Positions 1 to 11,507 of a DNA stretch of 11,507 nucleotides are shown here, piece after piece (the first letter of the stretch is position 1; every line of letters begins with the position of its first letter). The DNA comes from a virus. Taxonomy: Duplodnaviria > Heunggongvirae > Uroviricota > Caudoviricetes. Under the pieces are notes generated by a model. The model made no database searches and had not been told where the DNA came from. It was given only the letters and a program-made list of their open reading frames with translations. The translations under genes and the position numbers were made by a program. The stretch is taken from positions 1-11,507 of IMG/VR virus record IMGVR_UViG_2657245521_000005; one strand, 5' to 3'.

Positions 1-584
1 TTTCCCAGTTTAACCAATAACTCATCTCGATTTGGAATCATAAGCGCTTTTCCAGTCAAGCAACGTTTTCTGGTTCCTTGTTCAAGGGATAAAAAAACAG
101 GGTTGTTATTAAGTCTCTCAGTTATTATATCTTTTTGTTCATGATAAAAATCCAATGCTTTCGTATTATCACTAGATGTAAATAACTCAATTCTCTTTAC
201 ACAATCATTCATGTGCATGACATTCAACTTTGCTGACCACTCCTCAGTTGAATCTGGATTCTCAGATAAATACATAAACAATAACTCAGCTTCCAGAATC
301 GCTCTTACATGAGGTGCAATCGCCGAAAAATCCCAAAAGTCATAATCCCGCTTAGCCCATCTTGATTTTGGTACGTTGGAAATCATTATTGAAGCATGAA
401 TGCAGATTCGTGAAAAAATGTATGTAGACCACCCTTTAAAAGCCTCAGCCATTCGCACACCAACCCCCTGACTTACAGCATTCGCTTCACATACAGCTTT
501 ATCAAACTCCCTTAAGTAGTGATGGAAGTCATCCATCGAAAAATCGTTTCGTTCAAGTGGATTTTCGGGATTATCTATTTTCAT
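1..584 (-). CDS. Hypothetical protein, N-terminal 194 codons only (C-terminus beyond window start); AT-rich cargo (moron) gene downstream of Q and its terminator
   Basis: Hand translation of the reverse strand from ATG at 584..582 (MKIDNPENPLERNDFSMDDFHHYLREFDKAVCEA...) stays open for 194 codons to the window edge despite AT-rich composition, where stops are frequent by chance. AGGTGA Shine-Dalgarno lies just upstream. Absent from the supplied ORF track, presumably because no in-window stop exists. No recognisable motif. Confidence 0.6.
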   Translation of the reverse strand, partial: MKIDNPENPLERNDFSMDDFHHYLREFDKAVCEANAVSQGVGVRMAEAFKGWSTYIFSRICIHASIMISNVPKSRWAKRDYDFWDFSAIAPHVRAILEAELLFMYLSENPDSTEEWSAKLNVMHMNDCVKRIELFTSSDNTKALDFYHEQKDIITERLNNNPVFLSLEQGTRKRCLTGKALMIPNRDELLVKLG

Positions 585-633
585 ACTTCACCTATTTAAA
601 ACAATTGGTTTAAATCGGTGAATTATAACGCAA

Positions 634-655
634 AAACCCGCTCATTGGCGGGTTT
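634..655 (-). terminator. Intrinsic terminator-like hairpin (tR'-like) between Q and the cargo gene
   Basis: Minus-strand reading gives AAACCCGC-CAATGA-GCGGGTTT followed by TTGCGTTAT: an 8-bp stem with GC core, 6-nt loop and U-rich tail. The tail is U-rich only on the minus strand, matching the direction of Q and the downstream gene. Confidence 0.45.
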
Positions 656-688
656 ATAAAACTTTGGCAACATATCAAATACGCTTCA

Positions 689-717
689 AATATGGCTTAT
701 TTTGTTGCATTTTGCAA
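689..717 (-). promoter_or_regulatory. Putative late promoter (pR'-like) immediately downstream of Q
   Basis: Minus-strand TTGCAA (717..712), 17-nt spacer, CATATT (694..689). Position between the Q stop (748) and the terminator hairpin matches lambdoid pR'/qut/tR' layout. Sequence match to sigma70 consensus is only moderate. Confidence 0.2.
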
Positions 718-747
718 GCGCGTTTGAAGGAGATAGTGAAATTTACT

Positions 748-1437
748 TCACATTTCTGCCACTTTGAGGGCTTCTTCTTCCTCATAGTATTCAAGAGCCA
801 TTGCCAACGCAGATTCATCAAGCTGGGTAAAAGCGGCCTTTAACCCAGCCCAGTGCCCTGAATAGACACGCAACCATGTCGAACGATCAACGCTAACCAT
901 GCGGGCCAACGCTGCACCAGCATAGTCTTTATAGGTTTCATTATTTCTGGTTGCGGCAATTTCCTGCCCTGCCAGCCATACCAGGCCAATCAGTTTCTTT
1001 ACTACGCGCTCCTGAAGGGAATTATCACCCAGGCATTTCTGATAAGTTTTCCAGACGTATTCACACATCATCACTTGGTGCTTATAGCTAAGGTCAAAAC
1101 CGTAGCAGTACCGCAACCAGGCCTGCTGGTATCCACTAAGCGCGGACACTGCCCTACGCCACGGCGCGGACTCAAATTCCGCATCTTTTATCGGCGGCAT
1201 TGGCCTGCAGCGGCTGCGTGTTTCCAGTACATACAATGGCGCGGAAAGCGAGTTAACAAAGCGAGGCCCCTTCTCTCCTTCGAGTTCGACGAGATGAATT
1301 CCACGGCGCGGGGTGGCATTTTTGTCTGCTGGTGGGTGTTCACTGAAAGCCTCAAGCTGCCCTTTTGTTCCCCCAGAGAGGTCAGGTAGCGCGCGGCGCA
1401 ATTCTATTCTTACAAAATTCAGGTCTTGTTGATTCAT
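748..1437 (-). CDS. Antitermination protein Q-like late-gene regulator
   Basis: ORF 748..1458 begins with GTG abutting the upstream stop; internal ATG at 1437 (MNQQDLNFVRIELRRALPDLSGGTKGQLEAF...) has GGAG upstream and is the preferred start. Assignment rests on recalled resemblance to the 21/82-type Q family and on synteny: last gene of the early operon after the nin-like genes, followed by promoter-like and terminator-like elements and a cargo gene. Confidence 0.55.
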   Translation of the reverse strand: MNQQDLNFVRIELRRALPDLSGGTKGQLEAFSEHPPADKNATPRRGIHLVELEGEKGPRFVNSLSAPLYVLETRSRCRPMPPIKDAEFESAPWRRAVSALSGYQQAWLRYCYGFDLSYKHQVMMCEYVWKTYQKCLGDNSLQERVVKKLIGLVWLAGQEIAATRNNETYKDYAGAALARMVSVDRSTWLRVYSGHWAGLKAAFTQLDESALAMALEYYEEEEALKVAEM

Positions 1438-1458
1438 GCTTCTTTGCGCTCCATACAC

Positions 1459-2487
1459 TTAAGCTTTCGCAATTACGCCGATCGCCAGCGCCCGATCCAT
1501 AAAACGCAGTAGCAGCTCAAGCTGCGTACCATGCTTCTGCTCGAATGCCGATACATCGGCGTGTAACTCGTCGTGGCACTCTCTGCACAGAGGGATCACG
1601 AAGAGGTCATGGGCTTTTGTTGCTGTACCACCCATACCGTGCCCTACGATATGGTGCGGATCATCTGCTGGCCGTCGGCAACACTCACAGGGTTGTGTTT
1701 TTACCCAGCGGGTGTAAGTCTCATTTATCCAGCGGCGTCGCTTTGGCCTGAGCATGAAAGATTCCGGAGACTCCGGATCAACAGAGAGCGTGAGGATCTT
1801 CTTCGCCTTCTCCTGCACGAGGCTGGTTGCAGTAGCGGAAGGCACAATGTCGCTTTCCCTCATGACCGAGCGGATCTTCTCATCCGGAAGGCGTAGCCCC
1901 TTGTGCGCAACGCTTTCCGGAATAACATCAGCCAGGTCGTTTCTGACCATCCACCAGCACAGTTCCGGAAGCGTCAGGATATGCGACTCGGGAAAACCAG
2001 AATCACGCCGAATGACTTCCAGAATCCAGGATACCAGGTTTCCTGCCGCTATACCTGCAAGCCGTTCGGTATGCTGCCCCGACAAAGTGTGATCGCAATG
2101 CCAGCACAGGCGAATACTTCCTGGTGGGTGCCGCATTGTTGTGAAGTTCTTGTCGTGCCACGATGAATGTGGCCACTGGCATTCAAACCGAGAACTCAGC
2201 CACTGCTCAAGGGAAGGAAGTCCACCGGCACGCTGAATAACCCGCTCATTCCCGAAGACCTGCCGCATTACCGGATCATCAGCCAGCGGCTGAATGGCTG
2301 CCGGAACAGCCCCGGTACTGAATGACGCCATTTCTTCTGGTTCAGGCTCGAGCAGAACGCGACCACGCATGAAGAGGTGCATCAGTTTAGCACCGGGACG
2401 GAACAGCACAATCCCCATACGATGGGCGATCTCGGGGGTAAGCAGAGCTCTCACGCGACCTGCCCCCTGGCAATGTGTTCTGCCCAC
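1459..2487 (-). CDS. DUF968/YdfU-like prophage protein with C-terminal HNH-like Cys/His cluster
   Basis: 342-codon ORF directly upstream of Q, as ydfU precedes quuQ in E. coli Qin prophage (recalled synteny). C-terminus carries CECCRRPADDPHHIVGH...CRECHDELH, a CxxC...HH...CxxCH pattern typical of HNH/zinc-finger nuclease folds. Start uncertain: GTG at 2487 (GGTGG SD) overlaps the upstream gene by 37 nt; in-frame ATGs also at 2418, 2382, 2370 and 2331. Confidence 0.5.
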   Translation of the reverse strand: MGRTHCQGAGRVRALLTPEIAHRMGIVLFRPGAKLMHLFMRGRVLLEPEPEEMASFSTGAVPAAIQPLADDPVMRQVFGNERVIQRAGGLPSLEQWLSSRFECQWPHSSWHDKNFTTMRHPPGSIRLCWHCDHTLSGQHTERLAGIAAGNLVSWILEVIRRDSGFPESHILTLPELCWWMVRNDLADVIPESVAHKGLRLPDEKIRSVMRESDIVPSATATSLVQEKAKKILTLSVDPESPESFMLRPKRRRWINETYTRWVKTQPCECCRRPADDPHHIVGHGMGGTATKAHDLFVIPLCRECHDELHADVSAFEQKHGTQLELLLRFMDRALAIGVIAKA

Positions 2488-3134
2488 AGTCCACCAATCC
2501 AGCGCACGCCTTTCGCAGTGAAACGTGCCTGGCTGAATGCATGATTTGAGGTTACGGATGTGCCGGTTTTCACTTCAAAACGGCCCGCATCAATATGCTG
2601 ATACCGTGGGGTCATCGTTCCACCAAGGCGATACATGATGTCGTTCTCAAGGAGGAATAACCGCAGATCTGGCTCTTTTGCCTTAAGCAGTTTTGCCACC
2701 TGGCGGAATGACATTGACCCACTGGCTGTACAGTACCGATCAACAAACGCTACCTTCGGCGCCGCGGCAGCCAGTTCGTTAGTCAACTGCTGTTTTTGTT
2801 CTGCAAGGTCAGCGGCAAGACGTAGGGCTTCAGAGAATGATTGAGGAATCGTCTGCTGCTGTGCCTGCTCAAGCTCCTGCCAGCGATCAACCAGACGCGC
2901 GGTAAACTCCGGCGACAGCTGCGCGACAACGATATAACTGTCCCGCTTCCCTATCAGATAAACCGATACCGACTGATTGAGGTGATTTTTAACTTCCCCC
3001 ATTGGGGGGAGTTCAATAACACCGCGCTCTGCCAGGCGTTCAATGGACCGTTTAACATGGTCATGTCGTGATTCCACCAGCTCAGCAATATCGCTGCTGG
3101 ACATGGTTAATGCTGTTGTTGCTAATTGGCTCAT
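2451..3134 (-). CDS. Phage regulatory protein Rha / antirepressor with KilAC-type C-terminal domain
   Basis: N-terminus MSQLATTALTMSSSDIAELVESRHDHVKRSIERL matches the Rha-type HTH signature (recalled). C-terminal YCTASGSMSFRQVAKLL...DIMYR...RYQHIDAGRFEVK resembles the ANT/KilA-C module. ATG at 3134 with GGAG 9 nt upstream is preferred over the ORF-track start at 3173. Confidence 0.7.
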   Translation of the reverse strand: MSQLATTALTMSSSDIAELVESRHDHVKRSIERLAERGVIELPPMGEVKNHLNQSVSVYLIGKRDSYIVVAQLSPEFTARLVDRWQELEQAQQQTIPQSFSEALRLAADLAEQKQQLTNELAAAAPKVAFVDRYCTASGSMSFRQVAKLLKAKEPDLRLFLLENDIMYRLGGTMTPRYQHIDAGRFEVKTGTSVTSNHAFSQARFTAKGVRWIGGLWAEHIARGQVA

Positions 3135-3147
3135 ACTTTTCTCCATA

Positions 3148-3534
3148 TCAGGCGGCCGCACCCGCCGGTTCATATCTGCTGATCGTTATCTCTACCCGAC
3201 CTTTCGGCACTACGGGTCCCCATTCCACCAGCATGCGCTTAATCTGGCTGTCATCTTCCCAGACACCCGCATGCGTCAGCGCGTCAAACAGGGCTTTGTT
3301 GTAATTATCGATATCCCGGCGGCGCGCATCCGGCGGGTACAGAGTGATTTCTACCGCAGCCAGTTCAGTCGATGGCTTCGGGAGACGTCGTAATTGCTCA
3401 ATGATCGCCACGCAGGCAGCGCTCTGGTATTTACGGCCTTCAGCGCTAATGAGGTGACGACCAGCCAGCGCCCCCTTGTTAGGAGCGCGCCAGTAAGTGT
3501 TCACGCTGGGTGGAAATGGGAGTATGAGCCTCAT
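3148..3534 (-). CDS. rusA: Crossover junction endodeoxyribonuclease RusA (Holliday junction resolvase)
   Basis: 128 aa, MRLILPFPPSVNTYWR...RRRDIDNYNKALFDALTHAGVWEDDSQI... aligns by eye with E. coli RusA including the conserved acidic residues. GGAGG SD 5-6 nt before ATG at 3534. Confidence 0.85.
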   Translation of the reverse strand: MRLILPFPPSVNTYWRAPNKGALAGRHLISAEGRKYQSAACVAIIEQLRRLPKPSTELAAVEITLYPPDARRRDIDNYNKALFDALTHAGVWEDDSQIKRMLVEWGPVVPKGRVEITISRYEPAGAAA

Positions 3535-3648
3535 TAAAAGCCTCCGTCATAATTCCTGAAACATACCTCAACTTTCCCGCTATAGTGACGAACACGTTGA
3601 ACAACATCCGAAATAGGCGCTATACCGGCAGGGCGATAAAAGACTGTT

Positions 3649-4971
3649 TCACGCATGAGTTACCCCCTGCATGCTGTCGACAAGACCACGCGCAATTGTG
3701 ATTATTTCGCTGGTGGACATTCGTTCCAGCCAGAGTTGATTGATGTTGGCTTTCAGCTTGTTCTGCTGTGATTCATCCAGCATGTCAGCACCATCCACCT
3801 GGTCGAATACAATTCCAACCTCCAGTGGCCATATACGGGACTCGGGAAGCTGATCGGCTACTGGTTTAGCTTTCTCACGGATGTGCATGCGGATCTGGCG
3901 AATATTGGACCAACTGGAAACATCCAGGCTTCCCATAGCTGCAATGAAATCAGTACTGTTCATGCCATATTCACCAGATGCTTCAAGGGCAACAGTACGA
4001 ATACGTTCCGACATATCCAGGCGCGCAGCAGCGTCATCGAATTCAATCGACAACAGCCACTCATCCACACCGAGCAAAATACTCTCACGAATAAGCAGCT
4101 TCGCTTTGTCGATCGTTAATGGTGATACCTGAGTGAATTCCGGTGCTTCGACAGAATCCGCCGCCCAGGTATGCCCAAACTTCGATTCACTGAATGTGTA
4201 TTCTTCTTTATCGCCGAACGCAGCTCTAACGCATGCCCACGCCTCAACACCGCTGATATCAAAAATATCTTTCTGGGTAAGTGGCAACTCTGCTTCTGGC
4301 TTGTCAGCTACAGGTGGTGTGGCGGTTGCTGGCTGAGGTTTGCTGGTGGCAAACTGTGCCAAAGCCATAAACGCGCGCCCTTTTGTTTCCAGTTCTGTGC
4401 GGTTGATATAGCTGAATCGCTCGCCACGCCATGACTTATCGAATACAGCTATGGCTCCGGAAAAAAACGCGCTGGTGGGCTTCTGTTTTTCGTCAGCAGG
4501 TACAAACCACACTGGCAGATCGAAACCAATGCGCCCGCGAATGAATACAATGTGATCGGCATCTTCCGGCCACCACGTTTCACTCGGCGCGGCTTTTATC
4601 AGGAATACATAGCGACCGCCCTTCTCGCGCTGGGTTGCTGCGTACTTCATGATGTGCGTCATACCAGTGATCGCCTGTTTCTCGTGGTACTGCGAGCGGC
4701 TATATGGAGGGTTGGCAAAAGCCGCGCCACCCAGTTCTGCCAGACGTTCAGACCAGTCCTGCGTCAGTGCGTTATCTTCGGCGGTGTACCATGCCGGGCA
4801 TTTCGCGTTGTCGTCGTCAGCAAACAAGTCCAGAACTAATGGACCAAATAGCGCGTTGATACCCCAGAAAAGCAGATCCGGTGTCCGCCACTGATCGCCA
4901 ACTTCTTTCAATTCGTGAGCTGGTTTTGAACGCAGTTCGGCCAGCGCGCGGCAGTATTTGTTTTCAATCAT
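3649..4971 (-). CDS. Phage-type DNA N6-adenine methyltransferase (Dam-like) fused to a ~230-aa C-terminal domain of unknown function
   Basis: N-terminal ~190 aa contain WRTPDLLF and the catalytic NPPY motif (FANPPYS) of phage Dam-type MTases. A Pro/Ala/Thr-rich linker (KPQPATATPPVADKPEAE) precedes an unassigned domain. The start ATG overlaps the upstream stop as ATGA (4968..4971), suggesting translational coupling. Confidence 0.75.
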   Translation of the reverse strand: MIENKYCRALAELRSKPAHELKEVGDQWRTPDLLFWGINALFGPLVLDLFADDDNAKCPAWYTAEDNALTQDWSERLAELGGAAFANPPYSRSQYHEKQAITGMTHIMKYAATQREKGGRYVFLIKAAPSETWWPEDADHIVFIRGRIGFDLPVWFVPADEKQKPTSAFFSGAIAVFDKSWRGERFSYINRTELETKGRAFMALAQFATSKPQPATATPPVADKPEAELPLTQKDIFDISGVEAWACVRAAFGDKEEYTFSESKFGHTWAADSVEAPEFTQVSPLTIDKAKLLIRESILLGVDEWLLSIEFDDAAARLDMSERIRTVALEASGEYGMNSTDFIAAMGSLDVSSWSNIRQIRMHIREKAKPVADQLPESRIWPLEVGIVFDQVDGADMLDESQQNKLKANINQLWLERMSTSEIITIARGLVDSMQGVTHA

Positions 4972-5900
4972 CCTCTGAATCCCTCTGGAATTTTGGTATC
5001 TACCGGGCCGAACTTCATCGGGTCATGTTTCTTCTCGCCCCAGCTTTCACGAGGGGGACGGCCTTTCTTATCCCAGCGGAGCCCGCTTTGCAGATAACCC
5101 TCAAATTTTTTCGGCCCAAACAGAGTTTCAGGCCGCATGTACTGATACTGCGCGTCATTGCCGTTCCAGTGTTCATGCTTGAGGTCAATCACCAGCGTTA
5201 AGTCGCTGACGGTATAACCTTCACGCAGACGGGCACGTATGTTTTCCAGAGAGGTTTTAGATTTCTGGTACCGGGAGCCGCTTACCTGGTTCAAATGAGT
5301 TAAAACCAGGATGGCGTTATCAGTGATCAACACCTCAGGGTCTGGTTGCGGCGCAACCGGACAAGAGGGGTTAATGATCTGTTTGTGGTGATCTGAGTAA
5401 TGATCTGTATAGAGAATAGGTTCCGCGACTTCGCGGTTAGGGTTCCGCGATTCTGCGTTTTCGGTTCCGTGATTCTGCGGAATAGGTTCCGCGACTTCGC
5501 GTTTCCCGTTCCGCGATTCTGCGGAATCCAGCGTTGCCGGGAATAAAACATTGATTAGCGCTTCGCCATTGATACGGTAATGCGTCTTTTTCGTGCCGTT
5601 TACCTGTCGCTGCGCCTTTTCAACAACCCCTGGTAGCCAGCGGGTACAAATCTTGTTTACCAGGCGCTGCACCTGATCTTCACTCACGCCGCGAATCTCT
5701 GCCGCAAGCTCGCTGTGCTCTTTATAAAACCAGCCATCATTCAGATCTGATTTACCAGACCAGAACACGAGCTGGTTTAGCACAGCGCCCAAAGCATGCG
5801 CCTGCTGATCGCCGGAGAAATAATCGAGGTACGGGACCGGAATGGTGATGCTATTCCTTTGCCCCGACAGCGATTGAACGATTTCAAATATCTGGCTCAT
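4968..5900 (-). CDS. Replication initiation protein (O-like) with origin iterons embedded in the coding sequence
   Basis: 310-aa ORF. The central linker (SAESRNGKREVAEPIPQNHGTENAESRNPNREVAEPI) is encoded by five tandem dyad-symmetric repeats, as the ori iterons sit inside lambda O. The C-terminal segment (HEHWNG...YMRPETLFGPKKFEGYLQ) resembles the conserved C-terminal domain of prophage replication proteins (recalled). Confidence 0.7.
   Translation of the reverse strand: MSQIFEIVQSLSGQRNSITIPVPYLDYFSGDQQAHALGAVLNQLVFWSGKSDLNDGWFYKEHSELAAEIRGVSEDQVQRLVNKICTRWLPGVVEKAQRQVNGTKKTHYRINGEALINVLFPATLDSAESRNGKREVAEPIPQNHGTENAESRNPNREVAEPILYTDHYSDHHKQIINPSCPVAPQPDPEVLITDNAILVLTHLNQVSGSRYQKSKTSLENIRARLREGYTVSDLTLVIDLKHEHWNGNDAQYQYMRPETLFGPKKFEGYLQSGLRWDKKGRPPRESWGEKKHDPMKFGPVDTKIPEGFRG
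5419..5523. repeat. Five 22-bp-period iterons (GGTTCCGCGAYTYYGCGG-like, each with internal dyad symmetry CCGCGA/TCGCGG); putative replication origin
   Basis: Direct reading: units start at 5419, 5441, 5463, 5485 and 5507. An adjacent stretch on the gene-downstream side (5382..5418) is about 68% AT with two GATC sites (5390, 5402). The ORF 5327..5551 (-) in another frame is just the translation of these repeats. Confidence 0.7.
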
Positions 5901-6069
5901 GATCGTCCGTTATCTCCCTGAACTTTCGCCTGAAATGCTCAAGTGGGCTGAAGCATTCGTGCGGGTAGCCATCACGCAGATAGATAACGCGCTGTGTTTC
6001 AGGTTCCCAGCGGATAACACGGACTGGCACTCCACGGTAGTCTTTGAACCTTCGGTTAAGTTCGCGCAC
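5884..6069 (-). CDS. Small basic hypothetical protein (61 aa) directly upstream of the replication gene
   Basis: GTG start at 6069 with GGAGG 11 nt upstream; 3' end overlaps the replication-gene start by 17 nt. No recognisable motif, so this could be a spurious ORF. Confidence 0.3.
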   Translation of the reverse strand: MRELNRRFKDYRGVPVRVIRWEPETQRVIYLRDGYPHECFSPLEHFRRKFREITDDHEPDI

Positions 6070-6241
6070 AGGCGTTTTGCCCTCCGGTTGTAGACCCCCA
6101 CAATTGAAACCGCCCTACTGTGGTTACACGGAACCCAGCGGTTTGATAATCTGCGTTCATACCGAAACAACGGAGTACCCGAAACAGGGATCATCCTGAG
6201 TTGCGGTAGACGGTTAAAAGCCGTTAAACTATTCATGCGGA

Positions 6242-6790
6242 TTATTTCTCCATACTCGAAGAGTTGTTCGCCAAGGCGCCCGGAGCTGCACACTCGCGGG
6301 CGTCACTCTTTTCTGGAAGGCAGTAAACACGGGCAATCAAATTCAGAAAGGTCATCAGAGTTACCCTGAACTGATATGCAATGTCGTTAAGGCTCTGCCA
6401 CTCACCCTTATCAACAACCCCATCGTCGATATACCAACGGTAAGCGTTGACCAGTTCTCCTAGACGCCCCACCAGCTCGGCCAGCTTTAAGCCAATTTCT
6501 TCGTTTTCGTCATCTGGCACCGCACCCGGAACGTGTATCCCGTTATCTGTTTGACGAGAAAACGCATCAGCTATGTAGCTGACACCGGCGGCTTTCTGTA
6601 ACACCATCGCCCATCCCATAGGGAAGATCTGATCCCCGTCGACGCGAAGGCGGTTAAACAATGCGTTCTCTGTCACCCCCAACCATTCCGCCGCTTCGGC
6701 GTAGCCACCAGGCAGATCGGTAATCGTTTTTTTAATCGCTACCACCAGCCAGGCTGGCTGACGTTCGACTTTCCATTGCGGTTCGTTCAT
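6242..6790 (-). CDS. CII-like phage regulatory protein (HTH-containing)
   Basis: Preferred start is ATG at 6790 (MNEPQWKVERQPAWLVVAIKK...) with GGAG 8 nt upstream; the longer ORF-track start at 6877 adds a low-complexity extension. The segment GGYAEAAEWLGVTENALFNRLR looks like an HTH. Located between cro-like and replication genes as cII is in lambdoid phages. Family assignment from memory only. Confidence 0.5.
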   Translation of the reverse strand: MNEPQWKVERQPAWLVVAIKKTITDLPGGYAEAAEWLGVTENALFNRLRVDGDQIFPMGWAMVLQKAAGVSYIADAFSRQTDNGIHVPGAVPDDENEEIGLKLAELVGRLGELVNAYRWYIDDGVVDKGEWQSLNDIAYQFRVTLMTFLNLIARVYCLPEKSDARECAAPGALANNSSSMEK

Positions 6791-6875
6791 TACTGCAACT
6801 CCATTATTGGCGCCGAACTTCCTGACGGTGATAGCCTGCAAGCTCTCACACCAACAGAACCGAAGGAGGTTCGAC

Positions 6876-7112
6876 ATGTCTGTAAATTCACTGCCTTACG
6901 GCAAGTCTCCCGAAGAAGCCGCTCACGATCTGGCCATGAATCTTGTCTTGTCTGGTCACTTCAAAACATTCCAGAAGTCGCCAGAAGAGGTTTTTCAGTT
7001 GATCACCAATGCAGAACTGGTCTTCAGTGAGCTTTACCGAAACAAACTGAAGGAAATAGAGTCCGCCAGATCAAAAGAAACCGAAGAGCAATATCAACGT
7101 ACGCAGTGCTAG
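6876..7112 (+). CDS. Small hypothetical protein (78 aa) encoded antisense to the early operon
   Basis: Perfect AGGAGG SD at 6864..6869 with 6-nt spacer to ATG 6876. Acidic/helical-looking product (MSVNSLPYGKSPEEAAHDLAMNLVLSGHFKTFQKSPEEVFQ...). Its stop overlaps the stop of the convergent minus-strand ORF at a shared CTAG (7109..7112). Confidence 0.5.
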   Translation: MSVNSLPYGKSPEEAAHDLAMNLVLSGHFKTFQKSPEEVFQLITNAELVFSELYRNKLKEIESARSKETEEQYQRTQC

Positions 7113-7354
7113 CCATGAACAAACGAAAGATAGAACGTTGAATAACCACGGGCGGCGCTTTCAACTGCCGCCTGTATTTCCTCCGCGGATCTCCCTCTAA
7201 GGATCATCTCGTTTATCAGCTCGCCAATAAGGGGAAGGACAATTGGCTGGAATGACATGTAAACCCGCATCTTTCCTTCGGAAATGGTTATTTGTCCTTC
7301 ATCGCTTTTAGCGGTCACGCTGTTTGTATCTTTTGTCTCGCTGCTGTTACCCAC
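7109..7354 (-). CDS. Small hypothetical protein (81 aa) downstream of the cro-like gene
   Basis: GTG start at 7354 preceded by AGGAG with a 6-nt spacer. Co-oriented with the cro-like gene and the early operon. No recognisable motif. Confidence 0.45.
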   Translation of the reverse strand: MGNSSETKDTNSVTAKSDEGQITISEGKMRVYMSFQPIVLPLIGELINEMILRGRSAEEIQAAVESAARGYSTFYLSFVHG

Positions 7355-7383
7355 GGTTAACTCCTCTCTTTTGTGGTTGTTGA

Positions 7384-7626
7384 TTAAGCTGCTGAATCTG
7401 CAGACTTTTGGAAAACATCAGGACGCAGTCTTTCTTTTGGGATGCCAGTAACGCTCTCAATGTACTGAGATTGCTTTATTGGCGACCTTTTTTCTCTGTT
7501 GAGCCAGTTCCATACCTGTTGTTGTTTAACTTCCTTCCCGGAACTTGCAGTTAGTTTCCGGGCTAACTCAGACTGGCCACCAGCAGTTTCAATTGCCTCT
7601 GAAAGGGCTAACTGCTCAGGTGTCAT
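7384..7626 (-). CDS. Cro-like HTH regulator (YdaS-type)
   Basis: Preferred start ATG 7626 (MTPEQLALSEAIETAGGQSELARKL...RLRPDVF) with GGAGA SD and 7-nt spacer. The pattern AIExAGGQSxLAR...ERLRPD resembles the YdaS/Cro-like HTH family (recalled). Divergent from the CI-like repressor across an operator-rich spacer. Confidence 0.7.
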   Translation of the reverse strand: MTPEQLALSEAIETAGGQSELARKLTASSGKEVKQQQVWNWLNREKRSPIKQSQYIESVTGIPKERLRPDVFQKSADSAA

Positions 7627-7763
7627 AGTTTTTCTCCTGTGGTTTGAGGTAAAAGTTGTTGGCACCATTGATCATACAACCTAAACAACTTTTACCACAA
7701 CTTTTAGGTGTTGGAAAGCTAAAACATAAAGTTGTAATCTCTCCTAATACAGGGGGTAAAGTT
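7627..7763. promoter_or_regulatory. Immunity switch (OR-like): operator half-site cluster with divergent pR-like and pRM-like promoters
   Basis: The 8-mer AAAGTTGT occurs at 7652, 7728 and 7758, and its reverse complement ACAACTTT at 7685 and 7697, all within 137 bp. Candidate pR (minus): -35 TTGTGG (7700..7695), 18-bp spacer, -10 TATGAT (7676..7671). Candidate pRM (plus): -35 TTGGAA (7711..7716), 18-bp spacer, -10 TAATCT (7735..7740). Confidence 0.55.
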
Positions 7764-8450
7764 GTGAATACACTTGCGGAACGACTAAAAATAGCTAGAG
7801 AGAAGAAAGGCATGAGCCAGGCTCAGTTAGCCGAGCTAATAGGCCTGTCTCAACAATCTGTGGCGAAAATTGAAAATGGAGATACGCTTCAACCTAGAAA
7901 GATCAAAGATATTGCGAAAGCTTTAGATGTATCCCAAAAATGGCTACAGCTCGGAATTGAGGAGAATGGCTCTATTTCTGATTTTGTAGTTGAGGAACTT
8001 GAAGAAGCAAAACTTGATCCTGAAGTATTTGCCAACATACCCGTTCTCGATGTTGAGTTCTCTGCTGGCAATGGATGTGAAGCCGAAATTGTGGAATCAG
8101 TTGTTGATTCGTTCCCTCTTCGTCGTTTCGATCTTAGAAAAGCTGGAGTCAGTCCTGCTAACGCAAGAATCGTAAAGATTTGGGGCAACAGCCTTTTGCC
8201 AGTATTGAATAATGGGGATCATGTCGCGATTGACATGTCACAGTCGAAACCTATCAGAGATGGTGATTTATACGCTGTTAGAGATGGAGTTTTACTTCGA
8301 GTTAAAGTTCTTATCAATCAACCAGATGGTGGTTTGATACTGCGGAGTTTCAACAAAGAAGAGTACCCGGATGAAGTACTCAACTTTGATGAAAGAAGAG
8401 CCAGAATACACGTTATTGGTCGCGTGTTCTGGTCTTCACGTTCATGGTAG
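7764..8450 (+). CDS. CI-like prophage repressor (HTH_XRE N-terminal domain plus LexA-like S24 autopeptidase domain)
   Basis: Preferred start GTG 7764 (GGGGG SD, 7-nt spacer); the ORF-track start at 7656 would lie inside the operator region. HTH: LAERLKIAREKKGMSQAQLAELIGLSQQSVAKIENGD. Candidate Ala-Gly cleavage site in FSAGNG. S24 motifs: WGNSLLP (Ser) and LLRVKVL (Lys). Confidence 0.85.
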   Translation: MNTLAERLKIAREKKGMSQAQLAELIGLSQQSVAKIENGDTLQPRKIKDIAKALDVSQKWLQLGIEENGSISDFVVEELEEAKLDPEVFANIPVLDVEFSAGNGCEAEIVESVVDSFPLRRFDLRKAGVSPANARIVKIWGNSLLPVLNNGDHVAIDMSQSKPIRDGDLYAVRDGVLLRVKVLINQPDGGLILRSFNKEEYPDEVLNFDERRARIHVIGRVFWSSRSW

Positions 8451-9323
8451 AGCGTGAAAAAGCATTTCTTCTGAAATGATTTTTAACTTAGCCCCTTCAT
8501 CATCTCTATATGAGACTGCTTTTTCTATTTTCCTTCCGTGACTGGAGAACTTCCAGTCACGCGAGGAAAGAGTACCAATTACGAGAAAATCAATTCTCTT
8601 TGTGATTCCGCTGGAAATCAGTCCATTATTCTTTTTAATTAGGTCTTCAACATGTGCTCTCTTTCCTGCCAAAAAAACACCCGTTAAGCAAAATGTTTTA
8701 TTTTCAACAGAAACTTCAGCAGTATTATCTAATGGTAATTTAGTAGAAAGCCCATCTACGACGCCGCTTGCAAGGTCACAACCAGTAAAATCTACCAGCG
8801 CCTTGTGTAGATTTTCACTTTCTTCAGTGGTGATGATCCCATCGCTCAGAATCTCTTTTACTAAAGCGTATAGTTCCTTTCCTGGATAATTACTTTTTAG
8901 CGCCCCGTTCTGTGTTAACCACCAGTCCAGGTATCTCACTTCTTCTTCACTTAAGGTTCGATCTGATATTAAACCCTTGCAAAGACCATTCAACAGATGC
9001 AGATCTGACTCACTGGAGAATAAATCCACATCGGGTATATCGAGTATTTGTCTTTGTATATCATTAAGATGCAGTTTTAATTCACCACGCTCATCATCAG
9101 AAACAACACCATCGGCCAGTATTTTAGAAACCCTAACACTTAGACTCTTGATAACACCATTTCTAATGGTTTGGTTGGCTTCAAGTAGCCAAGTATCAAG
9201 ATATAGCACCTCTTCATCCCGCACATGTCCATCGGCAAGAATCCCATCAATAATGCTGATTAAATTTGCAAAAAGCTTATTTCTATTTTGTGTGTAGTTA
9301 AAAACGTAGAGCTTGTCTTCCAT
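8442..9323 (-). CDS. Hypothetical protein with four TerB-like helical repeats and a C-terminal BRCT-like domain; candidate immunity-region accessory (defence or exclusion) gene
   Basis: Preferred start ATG 9323 (MEDKLYVF...) with AGGAGG SD. Four repeats of I-L-[AS]-D-[GR]-x-[VIL]-x-x-[ED]-E at aa 28, 68, 118 and 158 (ILADGHVRDEE, ILADGVVSDDE, LISDRTLSEEE, ILSDGIITTEE). C-terminal KTFCLTGVFLAGKRAHVEDLIKKNNGLISSGITKRIDFLVIG...KIISEEMLFHAL resembles the BRCT domain of NAD-dependent DNA ligase. Markedly AT-rich relative to flanks; 3' end overlaps the repressor stop by 9 bp. Confidence 0.75.
   Translation of the reverse strand: MEDKLYVFNYTQNRNKLFANLISIIDGILADGHVRDEEVLYLDTWLLEANQTIRNGVIKSLSVRVSKILADGVVSDDERGELKLHLNDIQRQILDIPDVDLFSSESDLHLLNGLCKGLISDRTLSEEEVRYLDWWLTQNGALKSNYPGKELYALVKEILSDGIITTEESENLHKALVDFTGCDLASGVVDGLSTKLPLDNTAEVSVENKTFCLTGVFLAGKRAHVEDLIKKNNGLISSGITKRIDFLVIGTLSSRDWKFSSHGRKIEKAVSYRDDEGAKLKIISEEMLFHALP
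8463..8486 (+). terminator. Weak terminator-like hairpin just after the repressor stop
   Basis: CATTTC-ttct-GAAATG followed by ATTTTTAA. The stem is short and AT-rich, and the element lies inside the 3' end of the convergent gene on the other strand. Confidence 0.2.
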
Positions 9324-9375
9324 ACAGCCTCCTTTTTTGAACATCCTTACATTCAGACGCCCCACAATCAAACCA

Positions 9376-9456
9376 CATAAAGTTGTTGACATAACCATTA
9401 TTCACAACTAAATTACACCTTAAAGTTGTTATTACGATTTACAACATTACAACTAG
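9376..9456. promoter_or_regulatory. Second operator cluster (OL-like) with near-consensus rightward promoter (pL-like)
   Basis: Plus-strand -35 TTGACA (9386..9391), 17-bp spacer, -10 TAAATT (9409..9414). AAAGTTGT at 9379 overlaps the -35 and recurs at 9422 near the predicted start site; ACAAC-type half-sites at 9404, 9441 and 9449. Same 8-mer as in the cI/cro spacer. The divergent promoter for the 8442..9323 gene must also lie here. Confidence 0.5.
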
Positions 9457-9559
9457 CCATAAGCAACAGCGAACAGGCAGGACGCCCACGAAGTAGCCGC
9501 CGGTGGCGTATGAATAACCGGATGATTCGCTCAATAAAGTTAGGTAGGGGAATTTCACG

Positions 9560-9772
9560 ATGAATGCAGCACAACGCCGAAGGGCTTATCACAAACACCC
9601 GAAAGTTGGGGACACTGTAATTTTACGAGGCATTCCTCGCCTAGTACTGGGTCCGTGTACGTTCAACAGCCTTACTGGCGAAGAGCGTAGCAAACCTTCG
9701 GTAAGCCGTGTCAGGGTTCAAATGACTGGCGGCTCAACAGCTGCACCACTCGTACGTAATTTAAAGTTTTAG
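9560..9772 (+). CDS. Candidate small N-like protein with N-terminal arginine-rich motif (speculative)
   Basis: First ORF after the pL-like promoter, 70 aa. N-terminus MNAAQRRRAYHKHPK resembles the arginine-rich RNA-binding motif of lambda N (DAQTRRRERRAEKQ, recalled). Upstream CGCTCAATAAA is a weak boxA-like match. SD is poor (GGGG about 10 nt upstream). Could be non-coding. Confidence 0.3.
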   Translation: MNAAQRRRAYHKHPKVGDTVILRGIPRLVLGPCTFNSLTGEERSKPSVSRVRVQMTGGSTAAPLVRNLKF

Positions 9773-10558
9773 CGATAAACAGGTGTCTTCGGGAGGGGTT
9801 ACGGGCTGGAGTGACTACCAGCATCGACAGCTCTATCCGACGAAACGGAACCGTCTAACCCGCGGTTGTCGGTGAAAAGTACCGTAGGGATGCCAGCTAG
9901 TCACTGGCCCCCGCCCGAAGATACCTACCACCGCGCCTGATGTGGTTAAAAGCAGGCCAAAGCAATAACAAGTACTTCCCTGTTCTGGCGGCCCGGTGTT
10001 TTCCCACTTGTCCGGTCACCGCCAGCCTTTTTCAGGGCACAACGACGAGAGCATTGACGAGCAAGGCATAAGTGCTGGTTCGATTCCAGACAGTCCCATT
10101 CTGTTGGGAGGGTTGGGCAGGGAAAAGGTTCGTTCGATTCGAACACCGGCAGTGCTCTCTTCGTTGTGGTGAATGCGCAGGCTGATGCGCTAAACCGTGA
10201 GGGAGTGTCCCGAAAGGGTGCGTCACTGGTAATCAACCCATGCCGGAATATCGTAGTACCGGCCACCACAACCAAATCACGCTTAGGACCGTGATAACCG
10301 TAGTTCCAGTATTGCTGTGTGTAGTCTTGGCGGTACCAGGGTCTTCAACCTTATGCAAGGGGGACGAAGATAATGTTCTACCTCGGTACCGCCCTTTTTA
10401 CGCAACAGAAAAGGGCATCACCGGGCGACGGGCTCATAACCCAATCCACCCTGGCAAAAGACAGCGGTCTCTGCAAGCCGCCGACCAATGCAGGTGTCCT
10501 TCTCTGTTGTGTATGGAGAAAACACGGCGGTGGAAGCCGCCTTAACGAGGGTAAAACC
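9773..10558 (+). other. GC-rich ORF-poor transcribed leader; candidate structured non-coding RNA or decayed gene remnant
   Basis: Hand translation of all three plus frames from 9781 to 10240 gives a stop every 20-65 codons; track ORFs on both strands are short, overlapping and of junk-like composition. Contains GC-clamped hairpins (CUUCGG 9787..9792; CCC-GAAA-GGG 10209..10218), a palindromic GTTCGATTCGAAC (10131..10143) and a G3N1G3N2G3N2G3 motif (10106..10122). Confidence 0.3.
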
Positions 10559-10930
10559 ATGAGTAATGACCGCATGACCGTAGTGCCAGATTTTCTTGGC
10601 GAACTGGATGCCGGCGTGTTCATGAACAAAATCGCGGCAGCACTTAATACCACCGCGCTTGGCGTTCTGAACAATGGCAACAAAGGCAAAGTAGTCCTCA
10701 CCTTTGATTTTGAGCGTATGGGTAATTCCGTTGAAGAGAAGCGCGTGAAGATCAAGCACAAGCTGAACTACAGCACCCCGACACCGCGTGGTAAAGCCTC
10801 CGAAGAGGACACAACCGAAACCCCTATGTGGGTTAACAAAGGCGGGAAGCTCACCATCCTGCAGGAAGACCAGGGCAACTTGTTTACCCTCGGCGGGGAT
10901 CCGGACGGAAAGTTACGCGCGGCGAAATAA
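10559..10930 (+). CDS. Hypothetical protein (123 aa)
   Basis: ATG 10559 with GAGGG SD and 7-nt spacer (MSNDRMTVVPDFLGELDAGVFMNKIAAALN...). The ORF-track start at 10373 adds a Cys/Trp/Gly-rich junk-like extension and is rejected. No family recognised. Confidence 0.55.
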   Translation: MSNDRMTVVPDFLGELDAGVFMNKIAAALNTTALGVLNNGNKGKVVLTFDFERMGNSVEEKRVKIKHKLNYSTPTPRGKASEEDTTETPMWVNKGGKLTILQEDQGNLFTLGGDPDGKLRAAK

Positions 10931-10987
10931 GCCGCGATTGATAGCCCTTAGTTTCAGTTTTTCTACATCTATCTTTAAGGAATTTTT

Positions 10988-11425
10988 ATGTCTCAGTTAG
11001 ACAGCGGTACCTTCAAGCAGGTCAAAGACCTGGTTCTTTCCGGTTATCACCTGAATGATATTCATGGCCTGGCTTGCCCGACCGCATTACTGCCAGAGGG
11101 TACTGGCGTTGAAAGCCTCGAGCGTTTTTCTCTGGAGCGTTTCCGCTTCCGCGGTGCCATGACCACGACCAGCATTGAAGATTTTGCTCGTTATTCAAAA
11201 GGCTATGCCAGCGCCACTGAAAAAGCACGCTGCTTTATTGACGCTGACCATATGACAGCCCGTTCAGTATTCAACATTGGCACACTCGATAACCCCGGTC
11301 ATGCGGACAATGTTGCATCCATCACCCTAAAACAGACCGCACCATTCCGTGCTCTTCTCCAGATCAACGGTGAACGTCTGAAACAAAAACAGATCGCCGA
11401 GTGGCTGGAAGACTGGAGCGATTAA
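10988..11425 (+). CDS. Hypothetical prophage protein (145 aa)
   Basis: ATG 10988 with AGGA SD and 7-nt spacer; coding-like composition (MSQLDSGTFKQVKDLVLSGYHLNDIHGLACPTALLPEGTG...). A vague recollection of DUF2303/YfdQ-like prophage proteins is not strong enough to name it. Confidence 0.6.
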   Translation: MSQLDSGTFKQVKDLVLSGYHLNDIHGLACPTALLPEGTGVESLERFSLERFRFRGAMTTTSIEDFARYSKGYASATEKARCFIDADHMTARSVFNIGTLDNPGHADNVASITLKQTAPFRALLQINGERLKQKQIAEWLEDWSD

Positions 11426-11507
11426 CCGGAAATCAGCATGACAGGATGCGGGACTTTGATCCGGACAGCCCCGAAATAAAATTCAGTGATCGCAGGGCAG
11501 CCCTTGA

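Follow-up and report, generated by a model that had tools for sequence, protein, structure and literature searches.

In phage lambda and the Stx phages 933W and P27, the replication origin is situated midway along the initiator gene, where direct repeats with dyad symmetry (iterons) are set about two helical turns apart; the order along transcription is N-domain, iterons, low-stability tract and C-domain, and the repeats encode a flexible linker between the DNA-binding N-domain and the replisome-recruiting C-domain of the protein (PMC7466680). Two lambda iterons together with its AT-rich tract suffice for unwinding, O binds single-stranded DNA (PMC7466680), and the P gene lies downstream. More recently, 34 of 314 lambdoid phages were reported to carry O-only modules, in which the authors found no analog of a loader (Zheng et al., 2025; PMC12315714); O-only replication was there called "not yet understood", with none studied, and the paper mentions neither iterons nor an origin sequence. 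Helicase loading without a loader of the element's own is familiar from iteron plasmids, where host DnaB-DnaC is loaded through Rep-DnaB contacts and the unwinding elements contain sequence-specific 13-mers (PMC4980987, PMC5043065). We describe here a locus in an 11,507-nt stretch of viral DNA (positions 1 to 11,507 of IMG/VR record IMGVR_UViG_2657245521_000005, called the window throughout), where five 22-nt repeats and an adjoining tract within the gene of a 310-amino-acid (aa) initiator would, at a probability that we put at about 0.8, be the vegetative replication origin of a lambdoid prophage. Judged by gene content, the locus belongs to the O-only class recognised in 2025: within the 11.5 kb, its lambdoid early-right operon encodes one initiator, of the O type, and neither a helicase nor a loader.

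The initiator gene has the architecture of a lambda-type in-gene origin, with a repeat array at the linker position and a low-stability tract adjoining it downstream (Table 1). The repeats stand at an exact 22-nt spacing, as a reading made earlier from the sequence alone (the sequence-only reading) had proposed: on the + strand the pattern GTTCCGCGAYTYCGCG starts at 5420, 5442, 5464, 5486 and 5508, these five matches (at up to 3 mismatches) compare with 0.32 expected and are equalled in 0 of 200 shuffles, and Tandem Repeats Finder reports a period of 22/44 with scores of 108-140. The conserved core spans 18-19 nt, (T/A)(T/A)(C/A)CGC(A)GAA(G)TC(G/A)CGGAAC, and the same pattern scan found neither further copies nor a second iteron cluster elsewhere in the window. 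The symmetry is less uniform than first described, when the palindrome CCGCGA...TCGCGG was ascribed to every unit. The dyad CCGCGA-AG-TCGCGG is exact in unit 5 only; unit 2 has five of its pairs (CGCGA-AG-TCGCG), units 1 and 3 have a different dyad with outer arms (TTCCGC-6 nt-GCGGAA or TTCCG-8 nt-CGGAA), and in unit 4 there is hardly any symmetry. The units fall into two subtypes. By comparison, lambda has four iterons, at 20/24/23 bp.

The array encodes aa 125-161 of the initiator, DSAESRNGKREVAEPIPQNHGTENAESRNPNREVAEP, and this segment is indeed the hydrophilic linker that had been predicted, disordered in the AlphaFold2 model with a predicted local distance difference test (pLDDT) score of 29-40; the description of it as a repetitive peptide does not stand. 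Successive iterons are read in codon frames 2,0,1,2,0, and the three frames yield three unlike peptides, AESRN, REVAEP and PQNHGT. Because a 22-nt period places the units in three frames, the repeat is a feature of the DNA and not of the peptide. The same period means that the reading frame survives only steps of three units. There is a natural variant of the gene, identical at the other 867 nt, that lacks exactly 66 nt (5436-5501), or three iterons (locus L070, IMGVR_UViG_3300029184_000060; proteins P0002 and P0005, with P0002 on 12 contigs). The deletion, which leaves two iterons, looks like the product of recombination between the identical units 2 and 5.

Conservation was assessed on a set of loci comprising 29 genomic loci found by protein similarity, six from phage or E. 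coli records, and 76 viral contigs found by DNA pattern. As the 76 contigs were chosen by the CAGATC pattern itself, their use would be circular, and the conservation statistics therefore rest on the loci found by protein similarity. In these, third codon positions score 0.63-0.78 for conservation across the iterons and 0.81-0.89 across the adjoining tract, as against 0.45-0.70 across the N-domain, and the major synonymous codon at conserved residues is used by 93% of sequences in the tract and by 58% in the N-domain; the codon for T165 is ACA in 27/27. Conservation of third positions and synonymous codons so far above that of the flanking domain shows selection on the DNA. The tract is the best conserved DNA in the initiator gene, with the consensus TCTcTATACAGATCattAcaCAGAtcaaaACaaACAGAtcattAA; a CAGA spacing of 12 and 14 is found in 20 of 26 unique loci, and all three GATC sites in 17 of the 26.

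It is on this conservation that the case for an unwinding element depends, as the GATC cluster and the AT composition are weak when the window is considered alone. The sequence-only reading had pointed to an AT-rich flank of about 68% AT with two GATC sites; 5380-5419 does contain two such sites and is 65% AT, and the natural element is instead 5371-5418, 68.8% AT, with three GATC sites (5376, 5390 and 5402), each within a CAGATCA. The site at 5376 falls just beyond the 5380-5523 first marked out. This AT-richness is modest across the window (lowest 3.9% of 48-nt windows). By nearest-neighbour stability, no 40-bp duplex of the initiator gene is less stable than 5371-5411 (z = 2.9), which ranks 1/6090 for low stability across the early operon (748-6877). 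In IMG/VR, 76 contigs contain the pattern TATACAGATCNNTANNCAGATC; 75 of these have it within a homolog of the window's initiator, and all complete copies of the gene have it at about nt 489. When N-domain identity falls to 45-60%, iteron similarity is at background (0.34) and that of the tract is still 0.72, which suggests that the tract is read by something shared, either a factor from the host or some conserved portion of the initiator, and not by the lineage-specific surface that would read the iterons.

The lambda tract is A-rich, strand-asymmetric and free of GATC, unlike the three CAGATC 12/14-mers found here, which have a parallel in oriC and the iteron plasmids. Read on the + strand, the three repeats (GATCTGTTTGTGG, GATCTGAGTAATG and GATCTGTATAGAG) start with GATCTG, much as the oriC 13-mers GATCTATTTATTT, GATCTGTTCTATT and GATCTCTTATTAG start with GATCT, although the repeats of oriC are spaced at 16/15 nt and those of the window at 12/14 nt. 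The heptamers of P1 oriR also contain GATC. With iteron plasmids such as RK2 (oriV), P1 (oriR), F and R6K, the locus shares iterons phased at about 22 bp, a winged-helix initiator (whose binding is here a prediction) and an unwinding element made of repeated 12-13-mers; it differs from them in having no nearby DnaA box and no detected Rep_3-type fold, and in lying inside a coding region. We found no earlier description in the literature of a conserved GATC-bearing unwinding element. Motifs bearing GATC also follow directly on the repeats in an unrelated class of initiators, whose N-domain is of the HTH_36 type and whose repeats have a 15-nt period: in locus L005, GATCCGTCATTA occurs three times, with a period of 12 nt (3406-3441), and L003, the phage Eeyore locus, has two related GATCC(G/A)TCA motifs (gene nt 375-444). 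This hints that GATC repeats may be a general feature of such in-gene origins.

Twenty-nine genomic and 75 viral loci preserve the layout, and the search for homologs that had been proposed as a check on the period found a mid-gene 22-nt array in almost every N-domain homolog, from Enterobacterales to Vibrio and Algicola. A phasing of about two helical turns is thus kept across lineages whose repeat sequences are unrelated. The dyad cores are lineage-specific (CCGCGAAGTCGCGG, CGGCAATATTGCCG, CGGCACAAACGCCG, CGGCTCTTAAGCCG, CGTCGAAAGTGCGG and GGCGAAGTCGCC), and as both arms change together, the symmetry is kept. Among 93 non-redundant loci, the identity of the iterons goes with that of the N-domain (Spearman 0.73) and hardly with that of the C-domain (0.20), and in pairs with N-domains at least 90% identical and C-domains unrelated, the iterons are still 92% identical. 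Individual loci illustrate both kinds of exchange. In L010 and P0049, the same iterons and an N-domain with 95-99% identity to that of the window come with a C-domain of the lambda-O type, which shares 33% identity with aa 117-270 of lambda O, whereas Eeyore and P0120 have a C-domain 94-96% identical to that of the window, joined to an unrelated HTH_36-type N-domain and 15-nt repeats; phages LLS and Flotzy share this C-terminal gene segment at 87-88% DNA identity. As in lambda, the N- and C-modules recombine directly after the AT-rich tract. In L013 (4526-4560) and L015, the CAGATC tract is followed by near-identity to the segment after the AT-rich tract of lambda (TCGTCGGAGAATTCTGGCGA as compared with TCGTCAGAGAATTCTGGCGA, L036:551-580), at which the lambda record annotates recombination points of hybrid phages, a shared module junction. 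A DNA search of a phage database with the N-domain and origin segment returned two weak relatives only, so that no well-studied phage carries the cassette.

Two relatives deserve a closer comparison. The O-only prototype LLS, which forms plaques and plates on E. coli K-12 (PMC12315714), has the same order of yfdQ-like gene, repressor, cro, cII-like gene, O, Dam, Ant, DUF968 and Q, an initiator C-domain 94% identical to that of the window, a Dam-family gene next to it and no helicase or loader, and it is likewise Chi-rich. The LLS/Eeyore group differs from the window in its N-domain, an unrelated winged helix of the HTH_36 type (seen directly for Eeyore), in its 15-nt repeat period and in its downstream motifs, which are of the GATCC(G/A)TCA and not the CAGATC type. 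The initiator of phage mEp390 (JQ182729, mEp390_042) shares both domain families (54% full-length identity) and the mid-gene 22-nt array, with different iterons (CCGCGAAACTGCG / CGCAAAAGTACGG), downstream repeats that lack GATC (ACAGAC, ACAGAG and GCAGAC) and no methyltransferase gene after the initiator in the region examined.

AlphaFold2, run on a 47-sequence alignment, models the initiator as a winged helix (aa 19-120), a disordered linker (aa 123-183) and an all-helical domain (aa 188-278), and the linker coincides exactly with what the repeats and their flank encode. The C-terminal part matches Pfam Phg_2220_C (PF09524; aa 199-271, E 9e-24) and NCBIfam TIGR02220, and the PHROG matches are 428 'replication initiation protein', 9773 'replication initiation O-like' and 1701 'DnaD-like helicase loader', the last being the PHROG label of the C-domain; at E<=1e-5 the initiator has 2156 homologs. 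The N-domain (aa 1-125) matched no family in Pfam or NCBIfam: Phage_rep_O (PF04492) was absent even at E<=10, where lambda O as a control gave E 5.7e-36, and it was matched by 0 of 113 distant N-domain homologs. A PDB sequence search with the N-domain found no relevant match, fold searches returned 'winged helix' only, which does not discriminate between families, and a Rep_3-type initiator fold was not detected in the protein.

The likeness to ori-lambda drawn at the outset thus holds for the architecture and not for the family. Because its N-domain fails the Phage_rep_O test, the initiator cannot be filed under lambda O; by domain content it belongs instead with the DnaD-like replisome organizers, a broad winged-helix family that is uncurated, and has their layout of a winged-helix N-domain and a helical C-domain of the DnaD, DnaB_2 or 2220_C type. 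The N-domain family comprises 1066 cluster representatives at E<=1e-3, and the partner domains of its distant members are all related to replication: DnaB_2 (12 cases), 2220_C (3), DnaT (1), Prim-Pol with PriCT_1 (1) and DnaA_N (1). DnaD-like replisome organizers are known from phages of Firmicutes, such as G38P of SPP1, where oriL lies inside gene 38, and the Firmicutes phages usually encode a loader and/or a helicase next door. Neither stands beside the initiator in the window, and we know of no DnaD pathway in its host group. The single fusion to a DnaT DNA-binding domain, which recalls the DopC protein (PMC5509034), gives a hint of some connection with the primosome. HHpred places the C-terminus of lambda O in PF09524 (PMC5509034); in our hands, hhalign gave a probability of only 7.5%, with E 0.005. 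Initiators with 2220_C or lambda-O-type C-domains have in common a C-terminal tail, D(T/Y)x(I/L)PxGFR(G/S) (aa 297-310; 4971-5012, minus strand), that resembles the tail NTDWIYGVDL of lambda O and NTDWAEGVLG of P-linked relatives, and this tail may be a docking peptide.

In place of the lambda P gene, the initiator is followed by a gene for Dam methyltransferase, and the two earlier statements that the next gene is a methyltransferase and that no P-like or DnaC-like loader follows both hold within the window. Domain and family searches found no P-, DnaC- or DnaB-like gene after the initiator within these 11.5 kb, and tblastn with lambda P and two other P-like proteins found no similarity in the window. 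Among viral contigs, scored by whether any of the three open reading frames next after the initiator is P-like or DnaC-like, a loader is found in 0 of 25 with a 2220_C C-domain, in 13 of 29 with a lambda-O-type C-domain (11 P-like, 2 DnaC-like) and in 0 of 11 with another C-domain; absence of a loader is the rule for the 2220_C type. The first downstream gene is mostly a DNA methyltransferase (Dam 22, C5 13, N6_N4 5, MT-A70 2 and D12 1). A methyltransferase, drawn from at least five families and in some cases fused, follows the initiator in most of the loci (L001-L112), and this may be no more than the usual gene order of lambdoid phages. In the window, the Dam domain (PF05869, aa 19-199, E 1e-44; also TIGR01712) is joined to a helical extension of about 240 aa (aa 200-440; 3652-4374, minus strand; pLDDT 80-93), and the gene overlaps that of the initiator by ATGA at 4968-4971, so that the two are translationally coupled. 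We considered this extension as a hidden loader and found the idea unsupported, as it has no match in Pfam or among PDB sequences and its homologs are all Dam fusions.

The reading of these elements as a lambda-style origin is supported because every comparative test that was run agrees with it, and a mechanism can be proposed on the model of lambda O and the iteron plasmids. The initiator would be made from the early-right operon, of which the gene order is seen and the promoter is one that we infer. Dimers of its winged-helix N-domain would then bind the five partly dyad-symmetric iterons, which at a spacing of 22 bp, or about two helical turns, would all lie on one face of the DNA, and would form a complex like the O-some; the divergence of the iterons together with the N-domain is in keeping with this. 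Strain would open the adjoining 46-bp tract with its three CAGATC 12/14-mers, as its position, duplex stability and strong DNA-level conservation suggest, and the helical, DnaD-like Phg_2220_C domain would recruit host DnaB, most likely as the DnaB-DnaC complex in the manner of iteron-plasmid initiators or possibly by way of a PriA/DnaT primosome. More speculatively, the three GATC sites might render the opening of the origin, or its repeated use, responsive to Dam methylation and to SeqA. One could go further and imagine that the CAGATC triplet is a dedicated helicase-entry element and more than a spacer that melts easily, at which a solo O-type initiator without a phage loader has host DnaB loaded via DnaC or PriA/DnaT, that firing is gated by Dam and SeqA, and that the linked adenine methyltransferases keep the origin fully methylated and unsequestered in lytic growth; we regard this as a doubtful proposal.

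Several other explanations have to be weighed. The origin might be real and yet be served by an unrecognised phage loader, in the form of the Dam extension, the DUF4222 protein or a gene outside the window. The confident helical fold of the extension and its coupling to the initiator would fit such a role, as would the position of DUF4222, which precedes the initiator both in the window and in L001, and a loader may lie outside the 11.5 kb of prophage covered here. However, the extension is only ever found fused to Dam, many relatives have a short Dam without it or no Dam at all, and Foldseek against the PDB (best E 0.85) gave it no fold match to P, DnaC or DnaT. The early-right region of mEp390 that was examined, 9 kb, has no loader after the initiator and lacks Dam and DUF4222 genes altogether, and the complete genome of LLS (42.9 kb) is annotated with no candidate loader and with no replication gene besides the O homolog, in agreement with the failure of its authors to find an analog (PMC12315714). 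A hidden loader therefore seems unlikely to us. We consider it quite improbable, too, that the repeats are sites at which the initiator acts for control only, by autorepression, copy-number 'handcuffing' or incompatibility, with phage replication beginning at some other place. It is true that the iterons of plasmids serve initiation and control alike (PMC4980987, PMC5043065), that sequence by itself does not separate these roles, and that the natural deletion variant retains only two of its five units, but two iterons and an AT-rich tract are all that unwinding takes in ori-lambda, the layout of which is copied here. The array also abuts the least stable and most DNA-constrained tract of the operon, which an origin needs and a control site does not, and the window has no second iteron cluster. 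Very improbable, finally, is the view that the periodicity arises from selection on the protein or the mRNA, as a flexible linker peptide or as stem-loops that slow translation, with no DNA-binding role. The repeat segment does encode a disordered, hydrophilic linker, and as RNA it folds better than shuffled sequences (-49.2 kcal/mol, z = -4.0), although this fold pairs distant units with one another, which is automatic for any array of dyad repeats. A 22-nt period that yields three different peptides, synonymous positions more conserved than those of the folded domain, and a two-turn phasing that outlasts the repeat sequences themselves are all difficult to reconcile with it.

Some observations weigh against the origin as we interpret it. 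AT makes up only 69% of the tract, and duplexes less stable than 5371-5411 occur elsewhere in the window; three GATC sites within 30 nt are not significant alone (P ~0.29 for at least one such cluster in the window). The cluster is absent in mEp390, L012 and L027, which have ACAGAC or ACAGAG instead, so that it is common yet not obligatory, and methylation cannot be essential to the family. The dyads are imperfect in units 1, 3 and 4, no helicase-recruiting surface of a known kind was identified in the initiator, and no DnaA box adjoins the candidate origin, the nearest TTATCCACA-like site (1 mismatch) being at 6408 and the count of such sites in the window not exceeding that in shuffles. As the iterons adjoin the DNA that encodes the N-domain, linkage may add to the correlation between the two, and physical linkage alone could explain their co-inheritance. 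On balance, the proposal that the origin lies in the gene of its initiator, which was the heart of the sequence-only reading, finds its support in comparison.

The window covers the immunity and early-right regions of a lambdoid prophage, whose early-right operon is encoded by the minus strand. The genes run from cI-like through cro-like, cII-like, DUF4222, initiator, Dam, RusA, Ant and DUF968 to Q, which is the gene order of phage LLS and of the CPS-53 type. The prophage is CPS-53/LLS-like and probably from the Enterobacter/Citrobacter group: the closest proteins to the initiator are from the Enterobacter cloacae complex (97% identity), and its gene is 92.5% identical in DNA, across its length, to those of E. 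coli prophages. No Rfam family matched anywhere in the window, and predictions of promoters and terminators in 4900-6300 gave nothing above chance.

Table 1. Features of the window in and around the candidate origin
Feature	Position	Strand	Remarks
Initiator gene, 310 aa	4968-5900	minus	holds the candidate origin; open reading frame list, Pfam, PHROG
Winged-helix N-domain, aa 1-122	5535-5900	minus	presumed iteron-binding module
Iteron array, five 22-nt units	5417-5526	minus	mid-gene in initiator
Iteron units	5505-5526, 5483-5504, 5461-5482, 5439-5460, 5417-5438	minus	
Candidate DNA-unwinding element	5371-5416	minus	coding strand CTATTCTCTATACAGATCATTACTCAGATCACCACAAACAGATCATTAA; duplex stability, conservation
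CAGATCA repeat 1	5401-5407	minus	GATC at 5402-5405
CAGATCA repeat 2	5389-5395	minus	GATC at 5390-5393; 12 nt after repeat 1, codon frame shared
CAGATCA repeat 3	5375-5381	minus	GATC at 5376-5379; 14 nt after repeat 2, other codon frame
Helical C-domain, aa 188-278 (Phg_2220_C/TIGR02220, DnaD-like)	5067-5339	minus	presumed host-replisome recruiter; AlphaFold2 pLDDT 87-96
Dam N6-adenine methyltransferase fusion, 440 aa	3649-4971	minus	next gene after initiator
DUF4222 gene	5884-6069	minus	overlaps initiator start
cII/YmfL-like gene	6242-6877	minus	
cro/YdaS-like gene	7384-7668	minus	
cI-like repressor	7656-8450	plus	
RusA, Ant/Rha, DUF968, antiterminator Q			after Dam fusion in operon order

Two further features of the window are of interest. 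It contains 10 Chi sites (GCTGGTGG) in 11.5 kb, compared with 0.49 expected and a number that no shuffle reached, at + strand positions 1328, 3709, 4342 and 4471 and - strand positions 1951, 3074, 3225, 6469, 6742 and 7577. This density, about one per 1.15 kb, is above that of LLS, a Chi-rich, RecBCD-dependent phage with one per 1.86 kb (PMC12315714), and in the standard lambda sense the sites are divided 6 to 4 between top and bottom strands, a weaker bias than in LLS. Beside the repressor gene, the minus strand encodes at 8442-9398 a protein of 318 aa that carries a BRCT domain at its C-terminus (E 1.4e-5); the block is markedly AT-rich, and the location is typical of a prophage accessory or defence gene.

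O-only modules account for about one lambdoid phage in nine, and how they replicate has been called not understood (PMC12315714); we found no use in the literature of 'initiator-solo' as a term for such systems. To this question the present locus and its roughly 100 relatives bring a defined cis element, composed of five iterons that track one protein domain and an almost invariant 46-bp tract with three CAGATC repeats, and the pattern TATACAGATCNNTANNCAGATC provides a highly specific marker of this type of origin for the annotation of prophages. As one and the same cassette of origin and N-domain is found paired either with lambda-O-type C-domains, with or without P, or with loader-free DnaD-like C-domains, these pairings amount to a natural swap series that leads toward what replaces P.

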